Virus record (IMG/VR): IMGVR_UViG_3300043411_002794
Coordinates: 64,001-128,000 of that record
DNA length: 64,000 nucleotides
DNA from: a virus
Reading direction: 5' to 3' (one strand)
Each line of letters opens with the position of its first letter. Position 1 is the stretch's first letter. Below the pieces are notes generated by a model. The model did not search any database. It was not told the DNA's origin and worked only from the letters and a program-made list of their open reading frames with translations. This document shows positions 9,124 to 13,236 of the stretch, one piece after another. Position numbers and translations under genes: made by a program.

Positions 9124-10326
9124 CTAGGTCGCGATGCAGCTGCATTCACAACCGGCACAAACGGATTTCATTTGTAGGTTGAGCTTCGGTAGCGGTTCAC
9201 CCATGTCTTCGGGCGTGAACTGCTCGATGAAGTCGTGCCATTCGGGGATTTCAAGCCCGCCGGCAAACGCCTGCTGATTGTCGATGATCTCCTGCGGCGC
9301 CGTCGCCGTCAGGAGATCGATCTCTTCGGCCGGGAGAAGTTTGTGCTCCCGAATGAACTGGGTCATCATGCCCGGCATCTTCTTGCCGCCGCGATTGCCC
9401 TTGCGGCCGCGACGCCAGAGGCCCAGTACGCCGGTGGCGTTGCGTCCCCGACGCGGCTGCTTGGGAAGTTCCTTTTGGGCCCGCTTGCCGCCGTCGCGCT
9501 TCGGACGGGCGTTCTCCGCGTCGATCTCTTGGCAACGGAGCCGCCACGCGGCGAGCTTCGTCTCATATTGGCGATCGAGCTCGTCTTGCGGGATGTGGCC
9601 TTCGAGCCGCGGGAGCGCCCGGGCCTCCATGATCACGATGTACCGCAGGTAGATCTTCTTGAAGTGCTGCAGCTCTTCCGGCTGCGTAGCCGGGCAGAAG
9701 ATGCATGCCGACTTCACAGGCTGCCCGCCGCTTTCGACCCAGGTCTTACCGGTCCAGTCGGACCAGCCCGGGAGGTTTTCTTTGCGGATCTCGGCGATGC
9801 ATCGCTCTCGATCCCAGCCCCATTCGATGAGCGGGTACCAGTAGTTGTACTTGGGGTCAGTGTCCTGGCCCTTGATCGCTTCGTTATAGCGACGCTGATC
9901 TTTGGGTCCGGCGTCGTAGCCGATGACCTTCGTGACGCGCTGCCCGGCGGCCCAGGCCGCTTGAGCCGTCGCCCATTGCTCGCAGAAGGCATTCTGCGGG
10001 GCGACCTTCCATTTGAGCGAACAGCTTTTGAAACCAAACGCCAGACTCGGCAGCGTGCCGTTGGTGAGGCAGTTCTCGCCGAGGGAGTGATATTTTGGCC
10101 AGTGCATGAAATCTTGCACGACATTTTTAACGACGGTTACAGGTGGAAAACCAACCGATTGCAGCCATCGTTGTGCTACCGGAAGGTAGTCGTATGTTTC
10201 TTGTCGCTCGTTGCCGGTGTCGGCAAATAAAATGAGATCCGGCCGAATGTTCTGGCGGCGAAGTCCGATGATTGCAGCCCAACTGTCAACACCGAGGCCG
10301 TAGGATACAACAAGGGGCTTATGCAC
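9124..10326 (-). CDS. PAPS reductase / adenine nucleotide alpha-hydrolase-like protein
   Basis: PP-loop VVSYGLGVDS, LFADTGNE, CSLKWK, WYPLIEWGWDRERC, KSACIFCP; GGAG SD before a GTG start. Confidence 0.8.
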   Translation of the reverse strand: MHKPLVVSYGLGVDSWAAIIGLRRQNIRPDLILFADTGNERQETYDYLPVAQRWLQSVGFPPVTVVKNVVQDFMHWPKYHSLGENCLTNGTLPSLAFGFKSCSLKWKVAPQNAFCEQWATAQAAWAAGQRVTKVIGYDAGPKDQRRYNEAIKGQDTDPKYNYWYPLIEWGWDRERCIAEIRKENLPGWSDWTGKTWVESGGQPVKSACIFCPATQPEELQHFKKIYLRYIVIMEARALPRLEGHIPQDELDRQYETKLAAWRLRCQEIDAENARPKRDGGKRAQKELPKQPRRGRNATGVLGLWRRGRKGNRGGKKMPGMMTQFIREHKLLPAEEIDLLTATAPQEIIDNQQAFAGGLEIPEWHDFIEQFTPEDMGEPLPKLNLQMKSVCAGCECSCIAT

Positions 10327-10603: not shown

Positions 10604-10810
10604 TCATGAAAGCGGCGGCTCGACGGGCAGCGGCGGCGTGATAAATGCACGGCCCGATAGTTCGCGGCTACGCATGAACGCAGTGATTTGTTCGTCGGTC
10701 GGCTCTTGCTCGTCAGTCAGCTCAATCACGAACGTAGGTGGACGATTACGCAGAAAAATATCCGGCGTACGACTAGACGGCGGGATCACGGTGAGAATGC
10801 AGACTTTCAT
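10604..10810 (-). CDS. hypothetical protein
   Basis: start trimmed to MKVCILT (ATGA overlap). Confidence 0.5.
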   Translation of the reverse strand: MKVCILTVIPPSSRTPDIFLRNRPPTFVIELTDEQEPTDEQITAFMRSRELSGRAFITPPLPVEPPLS

Positions 10811-11310
10811 CTGTTCACGATCTTGGCCAGGAGTTTCTTTTGTTTGTACCAAGCCATTTGTGCGCCTTGGCTTAGACCTTTGGTGGCCCAGTTGCAGTTC
10901 ATGCCGATGGCCGGAATGATCTGCGTTAAGTACTCAGCGTAGGGCTCGCCCATGTGGAGCTCGATAAGAATGTCTTTGAACGCGGCTCCTTCGTGTCCCG
11001 TCCCTTGTGCGTCTCCGTACTTGAGCTTCACCAGCAGGCTCTCGACAACACGAAGCGACCAAAGTGCCCGTTCTCCGGCCGGGGCGCCGACGAGCGTTTT
11101 GTCATACGTCGAGATGTACTGGTCCGGAGACAGCAGTCCGAGTTGTGCAGAGGCAATGTACCACTGATCGCCCGTCGCTTCCGCGTAAGTGCGGCGGGCG
11201 TTGAAGATGCTGCCGGTATAAAGCGAGCGAGCCGTTACGAGGTCGTTGGTTCGTTGCTTTGCCTTCCCGCAGCCGACGATAATTATTCGAGTCGGTGTTT
11301 GGTGTCCCAT
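10807..11310 (-). CDS. DUF6884-like protein
   Basis: IIIVGCGKAK, ARSLYTGSIF, WYIASAQLGLLSPDQYISTYDKTL; TAGGAG SD directly follows the hexamer array. Confidence 0.7.
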   Translation of the reverse strand: MGHQTPTRIIIVGCGKAKQRTNDLVTARSLYTGSIFNARRTYAEATGDQWYIASAQLGLLSPDQYISTYDKTLVGAPAGERALWSLRVVESLLVKLKYGDAQGTGHEGAAFKDILIELHMGEPYAEYLTQIIPAIGMNCNWATKGLSQGAQMAWYKQKKLLAKIVNR

Positions 11311-11324
11311 ATTCTCCTAGTTCG

Positions 11325-12557
11325 TCAGCATTGTCGTAGTCGCAGCCACAGTCGTAACGCAGTCGTTGTCGTCAGCACGGTCGTTGCCGTTGCCAATGCC
11401 GTTGTCATAGTCGAGGTCAGTGTCCGCAGCGTTGCCGCAGTCGTTGTCACAGTCATGAACGAAGCGCCGTCATCGTCATCAGCGTCGTCGTTGTCGACGT
11501 CGTGGTCGGAGCAGATGCCTAAGTCAACGCCGTCAGCAGTGCCGCAGTCGGTGACGAAGTCGCTGCCGGTGTCGTTGCGCTGTCGTGGCCGGAAGCGTCG
11601 TCGATGTCGTTGTCGTTGCGCCGTCAGTGTCGTTGTCGCAAGCGGAGACGTAGTCGTTGTCGCAGCCGTCGTCATTGCCGCTACCGAAGTCGCCAGCGCT
11701 GTCGCTGCCGTAGCCGCTGCCATTGCCGACACGTCGGGGTTGTCGATGTCGCGGGCTGCAGCGTGGTCGTTGCCGGAGTCGATGTCAGAGACGGTGTCGA
11801 TGCCAGTGTCGTGGTCAGATGCAATGTCGCGGACGCAGTCGGAGTCATGGTCGATGCGGCGTCTCAGTCGAAGCCTGCAGCGTAGTCACTGTCGTTGTCG
11901 AGGTCAGGACATTGTCGTTGCCGTTGCCGTGGGCAGAAGCATCGTCAACGTCGAGGTCGTCGTCACTGCGTGGTCGGCAGCGTCGTCGTTGCCGGAGCCA
12001 GTGTCAAAGCCGGAGTCGGTGTCGTCGTCTTTACGCTGTCGTGGGATCAGCAAGGACGGAGTCGGAGCCGGTGACGTAGCCAGAGACGATGTCGCTAGCG
12101 CAGTCGTAGTCAATGCCGATGCATGGACATAGCCAACAGCGTCGTCAAAGTCGCTGCACGGTCTCCGTCGAAGTCATCGTCGAAATCGTTGCCAGTAGCA
12201 TTGTCGTTGCCGCTGCCGTTGTCGGGACGTAGCCGGGGCGTCAGCGCAGTCAATGCCGTTGTCGTCGTCAATGTCACTGCCGGAATCGCCGTCGTTGCCT
12301 CTAGCGTTGCCGCAGTCGTTGCCGCAGCCGGCACGCTGTCTATACCGGAGTCGCAGCCGATAGCGTTGCCGCTGTCGGCGTCATTGCCACAGCCGTCGTC
12401 ATGGTCGTTAGCAGAGTCGTGGTCGCTTGCGTAGTCAGCGTCGTAGGCAGAGCCGTCGCCGATGTCGTTATCGAAGTCAAAGTCACTAGCGTCGTCAGTG
12501 TCGTCGTCGAAGTCGTAGTCACGATCGTTGCCGCTAGCAGTGTCGCTGCCGTCGACG
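11325..12557 (-). ncRNA. periodic YGRC/NN array (~193 hexamers + 15 pentamers); candidate VIPR-like guide RNA array
   Basis: minus strand reads CGTC-GA CGGC-AG CGAC-AC TGCT-AG CGGC-AA CGAT-CG TGAC-TA CGAC-TT ...; phase slips by -1 fifteen times so no frame is held; starts 7 nt after the RAMP stop. Periodicity is directly observed; RNA status is inferred. Confidence 0.75.
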
Positions 12558-12564
12558 GTTCGGG

Positions 12565-13236
12565 TTAAACTTCGGTGCCTTCTTCGACCACGTCGCACGA
12601 AACGACGCGGCCGCGGCCGTACCCCATTTTACGGCACGCGCCGACGCCGACGAAGTAGCAGGCGTAGTCGATCAGGTGCTTCACCGAGTTTTCGTCGTAG
12701 ATCGTCCGCATGATCCCGACGGCGTCGAAGTTGCGGAGCAGTTCGTTGGACTGGAAGCGGCGCTGCCCGCCTTCTTCCGGCTTGACGTACCGCTCGTAGA
12801 TGTCGTCTTTCTCGAACTTGCCCGTTTTGAAGTCGCCCAGCCGCAATTTGCTGCGGAGGTCGTCTTTCGGGAAGCGGCTGCCCGCCGGAGCCGACGTGGT
12901 GGCCTGCACCAGGGCACCCGAGAACTGGTGACGGGGAATGATGATCTCCGTCTTCATGTTGTTCGGGTCGATGCGGTACCACTTGCGCTCCGCGGCCTTG
13001 CAGAGGCGTTCGTATTCGTCTTGCGTAATCCCTTCCTTTTTGAGGTAGGACTGCAGGGCCTGGGCGCGTTTGTCGTCGGAGCGGGCCCGGTTCATGCCGG
13101 ACTTCTTCTGGATGTCGATGACCGAATTGCGTTCCGGCCAATACGGGTCGGCGATGTAGTCGTCGAAGTGGACGACCACCTTGAGAGTCTTGATTTGATC
13201 GAAATCGTTCGGGATCGTGCCTTTGGACTTAGTCAT
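12565..13236 (-). CDS. stand-alone RAMP-superfamily (Cas7/Csm3-like; Vipr-like) protein
   Basis: start trimmed to MTKSKG (223 aa); N-terminal beta strand TLKVVVHF; IIIPRHQFSGALVQA matches the RAMP IPxSxLKGALR helix; C-terminal Gly-rich loop GVGACRKMGYGRGRV. Confidence 0.8.
   Translation of the reverse strand: MTKSKGTIPNDFDQIKTLKVVVHFDDYIADPYWPERNSVIDIQKKSGMNRARSDDKRAQALQSYLKKEGITQDEYERLCKAAERKWYRIDPNNMKTEIIIPRHQFSGALVQATTSAPAGSRFPKDDLRSKLRLGDFKTGKFEKDDIYERYVKPEEGGQRRFQSNELLRNFDAVGIMRTIYDENSVKHLIDYACYFVGVGACRKMGYGRGRVVSCDVVEEGTEV

Follow-up and report, generated by a model that had tools for sequence, protein, structure and literature searches.

In VIPR, first described in preprints of 2026, a solo RAMP protein, Vipr, coats a vrRNA made of units of constant bases and a dinucleotide (NN), and it is the NN that reads the DNA, one base being skipped (bioRxiv 10.64898/2026.04.26.720920, 10.64898/2026.04.26.720927). 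The type II exemplars, from Escherichia phage SUSP1 and a Pseudomonas fulva prophage, comprise Vipr, vap and vrRNA (bioRxiv 10.64898/2026.04.26.720920, 10.64898/2026.04.26.720927). Known vrRNAs are about ten units long (bioRxiv 10.64898/2026.04.26.720920; 10.64898/2026.10.21.760802), and non-canonical repeats of the forms GAC/NN, CAC/NN and WGT/NN (bioRxiv 10.64898/2026.10.21.760802) or NNNGG, YNNNG and NNNNG (bioRxiv 10.64898/2026.04.26.720920) are on record. In a survey of VIPR repeats the periods were 5, 18 and 60-79 nucleotides (nt) and, in a few cases, 7, 8 or 10, but never 6 (bioRxiv 10.64898/2026.10.21.760802). Here we describe a locus with a six-base rhythm in a 64,000-nt stretch of viral DNA, positions 64,001 to 128,000 of IMG/VR record IMGVR_UViG_3300043411_002794 (hereafter the window, to whose whole length all positions refer unless a related locus is named). 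On its minus strand a vrRNA-like array of 1,233 nt (11324-12556) adjoins a gene for a protein of the Cas7/RAMP fold (12565-13236). Since a RAMP fold, an adjacent array of constant bases and NN, and a target match with one skipped base occur together, the locus is probably a VIPR-type system, that is, a CRISPR-related DNA silencer, in a variant with hexameric units. In the explanation that we favour, to which as a whole we give a probability of about two in three, the guides of this array are headed by GCT units, and the 5-nt units that interrupt its rhythm are guide units that lack the second base of the hexamer (N2).

The array was parsed by dynamic programming along the minus strand from 12556 to 11324, with units of 4, 5, 7 and 8 nt penalised equally. 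The parse returned hexamers and exactly fifteen 5-nt units (hereafter slips) and chose no other unit length inside the array, 193 of the 208 units being 6 nt long. The blocks of hexamers between the slips number 37, 15, 1, 11, 5, 12, 1, 10, 9, 8, 20, 18, 6, 18, 17 and 5. All fifteen slips are -1 and none is +1, for which the probability, a calculation called for in an earlier note on this DNA, is 3e-5. That note, made from the letters alone, had reported the same fifteen units, block sizes and lack of +1 slips, and had read the tract as a guide array beside a RAMP protein; all of this holds up, its coordinates denoting the same units moved by one base from the G-first register used here. The hexamer has the form G-N-Y/NN/Y, with G at position 1 (p1) in 99%, A, G, C and T at p2 in 55, 25, 15 and 5%, a pyrimidine at p3 in 99% and a pyrimidine at p6 in 96%, while p4 and p5 (N4N5) are variable, AT-rich and never CC. 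The NN run is kept within a guide shared with other phages and differs between guides, as expected of constant bases that alternate with a hypervariable pair. The slips are equally stereotyped, since 13 of the 15 read G-Y-N-N-Y (equal to the 14 of 15 Y-G-Y of the earlier register), a form that a random 1-nt deletion in these hexamers would leave in 30% of cases (P = 8e-6 for at least 13 of 15). As a side observation, the pair CC, which occupies the NN in 0 of the 193 hexamers, is nevertheless found in three of the fifteen pentamers (GCCCC, GTCCC and GTCCT).

The one-base slips are real and not an artefact. The tract was found in at least 14 DNA runs from several studies, contigs of other runs and studies over 11513-12317, 11532-11855 and 11928-12607 show zero differences and zero indels, and in two further assemblies that encode the same protein the 1270-nt array region is 100% identical. 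Since the array is identical among assemblies that several studies produced from 2021 to 2025, the slips are not the assembly errors that might have undone the earlier interpretation. In one run (X11) a low-depth contig (depth 2.7, side 21) connects 12201 with 11728 through six other letters; this joint restores an all-hexamer reading and possibly represents a strain with a different guide set, but it is too weak to use.

The punctuation of the array appears to reside in another kind of unit. Twenty-four units begin with GCT or, rarely, with GCA, GCT being the usual junction unit; on the minus strand they lie at 12538-33, 12490-85, 12430-25, 12412-07, 12364-59, 12305-00, 12245-40, 12199-94, 12140-35, 12099-94, 12051-46, 11981-76, 11940-35, 11881-76, 11822-17, 11762-57, 11697-92, 11643-38, 11596-91, 11537-32, 11483-78, 11430-25, 11376-71 and 11329-24. 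Their spacing is 8.9 +/- 1.75 units in the window (n=24) and 10.06 +/- 0.85 units in the array of a close relative, L027 (n=19), and none of 5000 random placements was equally regular. Among the window hexamers C at p2 is associated with T at p3 (Fisher 9e-18). G stands at N4 in 12 of the 24 GCT/GCA units vs 27 of the 169 other hexamers (p = 4e-4). Junctions in phase with the units stand out more plainly in other relatives, where GCT follows GAC TTA in L005 and L006 and GGC GTA in L175; in L026 GCA follows GAC AAA, and in L001 GCT follows ACC AAA, itself preceded by the 5-nt unit GACAG. Stop codons, sought by inspection as translation barriers in the GCT units, are not enriched there. Since a module, at about ten units, is as long as a known vrRNA, the array probably comprises some 24 guides, each roughly nine to ten units long and headed by a GCT/GCA-first unit, and not the approximately 14 guides that had been proposed from the pentamers.

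All fifteen slips lie inside GCT-delimited modules, 10 modules having none, 11 having one and 2 having two. Slip-bearing modules average 9.2 units vs 8.4 for those without a slip, and since the counts are similar it follows that a slip counts as one unit. From the 5' end of the array, on the minus strand, the slips are GTGCC (12330-12334, the 6th unit of its module), GCCCC (12235-12239, 2nd), GTCCC (12224-12228, 4th), GCAGC (12153-12157, 8th), GCATC (12118-12122, 4th), CCCAC (12041-12045, 2nd, the sole slip without a G first), GTAAA (12030-12034, 4th, with A at its end), GCAGT (11965-11969, 3rd), GTCCT (11906-11910, 6th), GCATC (11853-11857, 5th), GTGTC (11728-11732, 6th), GCAAC (11615-11619, within a conserved guide), GCAAC (11574-11578, 4th), GCTTC (11461-11465, 4th) and GTTAC (11354-11358, 4th).

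The nature of the slips is clearest where a guide is common to several phages. The guide at 11597-11643 on the minus strand is shared with L027 and, in part, with L026, a second close relative. In the window it reads GCTTGC GACAAC GACACT GACGGC [GCAAC] GACAAC GACATC GACGAC, and in L027 GATTGC GTCAAC GGCACC GACGGC GACAAC GACAAC GACATC GACGAC. The NN series, TG AA AC GG AA AA AT GA, is identical between the two over 8 units, the best run in 200 shuffles being 6. Of the five differences, the deletion and three others fall at p2 and the remaining one at p6, with none at G1, Y3 or NN, and the likeness stops exactly at the next GCT unit in both phages. Since the NN series is shared and the slip at 11615-19 is the hexamer GACAAC in both L027 and L026, GCAAC is a hexamer without N2. 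The pattern of differences in the aligned guides indicates that the NN code is under selection. A second pentamer/hexamer pair is provided by L172, with GCTGC, and L023, L018 and L019, with GCCTGC. The GCAGT at 11965-69 was also considered as a conserved slip, L027 having GCAGC with similar following units, and was set aside because the likeness is, by our estimate, within chance expectation.

The same guide has a putative natural target. Read as codons, its NN series spells C-N-T-G-N-N-I-E, and a pattern of each NN followed by one wildcard (skip-1), sought as exact matches in IMG/VR viral contigs, gave 54 viral matches. Of these, 24 belong to one family with diverged flanks (median DNA identity 61%, 19 different skip-base strings), and for 22 matches the protein motifs that flank them confirmed that they are in frame, the skipped base falling at the wobble position. 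The product of the matched gene is a protein of about 50 amino acids (aa), M-[PA]-K-K-S-P-W-H-S-I-K...H-H-N-N-T-x-C-N-T-G-N-N-I-E-x-E-N...G-T-G-G-K-P-L-C-x-E-C, encoded for example at L063:6101-6253 (-) and L051:6800-7051 (+) and at about 20 more loci among L028-L081. A control pattern with two wildcards (skip-2) gave 50 matches, which consisted only of clusters of near-identical contigs. The L026 version of the guide is shifted and fits three more upstream codons of the target, outside the search pattern. The 1-nt-skip rule thus appears, from this one guide, to apply to six-base units. All eight units are matched at a constant step of 3 nt, also across the slip at 11615-19, and since this step does not change, that pentamer is neither a guide boundary nor a change in target gap. 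The target protein matched no Pfam, PHROG or NCBIfam family and belongs to an unnamed viral cluster; neither the phage's own genome nor the stretches fetched from the phage's relatives contain the gene for it. It may be added that three different VIPR-type phages have guides matching the same Cys-containing protein motif.

A weaker candidate target was found for the module at 11431-11483 (minus strand), in a protein with the motif EGFQWNWNHGD in L147, L154 and L161. Eight of the nine units of the module match three diverged homologues at a constant step across the slip GCTTC, which is aligned to a Phe codon. A guide of L018/L019 also matches contig L161, at chance level, and was rejected as the match extends no further. 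When all guides were searched locally, at skips of 0 to 4, in 27 related loci and in the phage's own genome, nothing above chance was found, the skip-4 matches being other arrays.

Arrays of this kind are not confined to one phage. Of 25 viral and 6 metagenome loci that encode relatives of the RAMP protein, nearly all have an array of period 6 that adjoins the gene on the same strand, either upstream or downstream of it, with a constant triplet that varies by phage (GGC, GCC, GAC or CAC). The L026 array has 86 hexamers and zero slips. L027 has eight slips, 8/8 of them -1 and G-Y-N-N-Y, L174 has twelve, all 5 nt and about 11 of them G-Y-N-N-Y, and L172 has eighteen 5-nt units together with a few of 4 or 8 nt. 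In the distant L024 and L025 (about 30% identity), GCC-NN-C hexamers are punctuated by recurring 7-nt units, that is +1 slips, of the forms GTTCGGC and GCCCCAC (L025:5692-6007, L024:5660-5818). The modules of L012 end in a repeated longer tail sequence. In the comparison with related arrays that the earlier note had asked for, the slips of L027 are thus again all -1 and of one form, and the slip at 11615-19 is a normal hexamer inside a guide in L027 and L026.

From these observations we propose how the units may work. In each hexamer G1-N2-Y3 and Y6 would be constant and N4N5 would specify the target, so that Vipr would sequester four bases per unit (Y6, G1, N2 and Y3), with N2 almost unspecified. 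We infer that N2 is flipped out and dispensable. The pentamers would then be ordinary guide units without N2, not separators; such a unit would have the canonical length, Y-G-Y/NN, would still be coated by Vipr and would still present its NN pair. The likeness to the 5-nt GGY/NN unit to which the earlier note had drawn attention is borne out as regards length. Each unit, of 5 or 6 nt, would read two target bases and then skip one, and a missing constant base would shift the register of the RNA and not that of the target. Indels elsewhere would break either the NN code or recognition by the protein, and selection presumably removes them; this may be why only -1 slips of one form are seen.

Several results weigh against this explanation. 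Eight of the 23 slips of the window and L027 begin with GT, whereas T is found at p3 in only 4% of the non-GCT hexamers, so GT-first slips are too common for the loss of p2 to be the whole story. Nor are the slips evenly placed: ten of the same 23 are the fourth unit of their module (P = 3.5e-4), the mean relative position in the module is 0.36, toward the 5' third (P = 0.003), and the slips of L174 show the same lean. A pure tolerance of pentamers fails to predict this preference. Two metatranscriptome runs from a single study gave contigs with ten ends, three of which (11359, 11733 and 12229) fall on the last base before a slip, vs about 1.2% expected per end, which could mean cleavage, and a further end, 12031, lies inside a slip; these contigs cover only parts of the array, the uncovered parts being uninformative, and cannot show RNA ends, strand or transcription, and DNA may be present in the libraries. 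An identified target is available for a single slip (11615-19), a second (11461-65) having only the weak candidate described above. Scans of the viral contigs with four other guides, namely the 3' eight units of module 11982-12051, module 12306-12364, the guide of L023/L018/L019/L172 and a guide of L027, yielded no target family, returning random-looking matches or clusters of near-identical contigs. Finally, a six-base VIPR unit was not found in the VIPR literature searched, which describes five-base units, and the array thus departs from those published. It is conceivable, if doubtful, that the pentamers are a designed feature, such as a hinge, a register-setter or a site partly accessible to RNase, for which the fourth position is preferred while the target step stays constant; a pentamer of this kind could set a short 5' segment apart from the main guide or restrict how long the Vipr filament becomes.

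The pentamers have also been seen as processing sites or guide boundaries, at which Vipr or a host RNase would cut ahead of the G in Y-G-Y-N-N-Y to release guides that run from slip to slip. We consider this unlikely, although all slips have one form and are placed non-randomly, the pre-slip contig ends would be natural products of it, and 'staggered' arrays have been described (bioRxiv 10.64898/2026.04.26.720920). The blocks from slip to slip would range from 1 to 37 units, unlike any vrRNA, and the GCT units divide the array far more regularly. Furthermore, a conserved guide and its target match cross a slip, the same guide is free of slips in two relatives, L026 has a full array without any, and the same RNA-library contigs that end at some slips run unbroken through 1 to 5 others. 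If the pentamers were instead neutral scars of decay in an array that is unselected, or in which many guides are, the number of slips might be expected to vary among close relatives, as it does (0, 8 and 15), some slips would be derived, as one is relative to two relatives, and most guides would lack targets, none having been found for most of those tested. This too is improbable, since G1 and Y3 are each kept in 99% of hexamers, no other kind of indel occurs, the NN pairs are intact on either side of the slip in the shared guide and the array is identical among the assemblies of several studies; the uniform direction, form and positional bias of the slips have the low probabilities given above. 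To that extent the claim that the slips are not random decay has been borne out.

That a unit one base shorter should change the spacing of the target, for instance by skipping no base at that step, is a natural expectation and had been suggested before, but it is very unlikely here. The pentamer-bearing guide does not differ in its NN series from the guides of L027 and L026, which have hexamers only, its target family is matched at a constant 3-nt step in 8/8 units, a shift of 1 nt would throw the codon-phased target out of frame, and the weak candidate target of module 11431-11483 also keeps a constant step. Least credible of all is that the tract is a frameshifted gene coding for an (Asp/Gly-X)n repeat protein, or that the slips are sequencing or assembly artefacts. 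Gene callers do place open reading frames (ORFs) on the tract, and GNC NNC would encode D/G/A-X; however, no frame is open throughout, no ORF spans the array (the longest being 162 aa), conservation between phages lies in p1, p3 and NN and not in codons, and the arrays of relatives lie on either side of the RAMP gene with varied constant triplets, while the identity of independent assemblies speaks against an artefact. The six-base VIPR-type array with GCT-headed guides, in which pentamers are units without N2, is therefore the explanation that we retain. The array matched no Rfam family, its predicted folding is not unusual (z = -1.45), and scans for promoters and terminators at the locus returned nothing.

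The adjoining vipr-like gene (12565-13236, minus strand) encodes a solo protein of 223 aa with an RRM core, a thumb and a C-terminal glycine loop GVGACRKMGYGRGRV, and no Cas families were found among the neighbouring genes. Its AlphaFold2 model has a predicted local distance difference test score (pLDDT) of 93.5, and the top Foldseek matches in the PDB are type III Csm3/Cas7, type VII Cas7 and Cas7-11 (E about 2e-6), with no Vipr structure among the PDB matches. In BFVD it matches solo RAMP proteins encoded by uncultured phages and archaeal viruses. Among 65 homologues, four match Pfam RAMPs and eight match Cas6 weakly. A tblastn search with the protein against 50,697 phage records, among which SUSP1 may or may not be included, gave no match. 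The gene is virus-encoded, the source genome being that of a 192-kb phage and 25 relatives being found in IMG/VR viral contigs.

No vap accessory gene is conserved beside the vipr-like gene, whose flanking genes are kept only in two syntenic close relatives. Directly after the array lies a DUF6884 gene (10807-11310, minus strand) that matches the PADLOC models DpdC and PDC-M57A, which belong to the context of 7-deazaguanine DNA modification; it was rejected as vap, since it stands beside the vipr-like gene in no relative. It is followed by a gene for a PAPS-reductase-like protein of 400 aa (9124-10326, minus strand), and the two may form a phage DNA-modification module. In L026 the place of the DUF6884 gene, directly after the array, is taken by an HNH/NUMOD4 homing-endonuclease gene (L026:7264-8019).

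If the explanation that we favour is correct, a clade of at least 65 proteins, which all come from uncultured phages, has a six-base unit and yet appears to keep the rule of two bases read and one skipped. In single guides 5- and 6-nt units are mixed with no change in the target step, which suggests that a protomer can sequester a varying number of RNA bases, whereas its step along the DNA does not vary. Such a flexible RNA step would bear on the evolution of the code toward the 6-nt Cas7 rhythm of CRISPR and on guide engineering. For annotation it would mean looking for a period of 6 and splitting arrays at GCT units, not at slips. To judge from the matches, it also puts a name to a likely natural target, a conserved Cys-rich phage protein of about 50 aa at which three phages seem to aim. 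Should the pentamers prove to be designed, they would add a second layer of grammar to a noncontiguous guide code.

Set beside the systems described so far, the locus shares its 6-nt rhythm with the Cas7 proteins of class 1 CRISPR (types I and III), in which each protomer covers 6 nt of guide RNA and of which Csm3/Cas7 are the closest solved folds. There, however, one base in six is flipped and the other five pair, on both strands, whereas here two of six bases would carry the code and the target would advance 3 nt per unit, and the locus has no repeat-spacer array, cas1/cas2 or other cas genes. The 'staggered' vrRNA arrays are likewise long and without tails, with guides that abut and with one-base shifts of register at intervals. 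There the slip is taken as the guide boundary; in the window the slips are -1 in a 6-nt rhythm and lie inside guides, not at guide ends. Non-canonical VIPR resembles the window in that the constant triplet can be GAC or CAC, in having about ten repeats per guide and in the adjacent Vipr-like fold, but its units are all pentamers, whereas those of the window are hexamers. With type II VIPR the locus shares a phage-encoded solo RAMP that has a G-loop, a helical insert and thumb-like hairpins, with no cas genes nearby; an adjacent, co-oriented array of short units, in which constant bases alternate with a hypervariable NN, forming guides of about ten units; and an NN code with one skipped base that appears codon-phased with the wobble position skipped and directed at other viruses, not at the phage's own genome. 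The locus differs in that no conserved vap gene was found there, that the array has no structured 3' tail or pseudoknot between guides, the junction being marked by a GCT-first unit, and that the unit is 6 nt (G-N-Y/NN/Y) rather than 5 (GGY/NN), a length common to the arrays of the whole protein clade. Each step thus has four constant bases instead of three, the second of them nearly free. In canonical VIPR three bases per unit are sequestered and two presented, whereas the proteins of the clade described here would sequester four.

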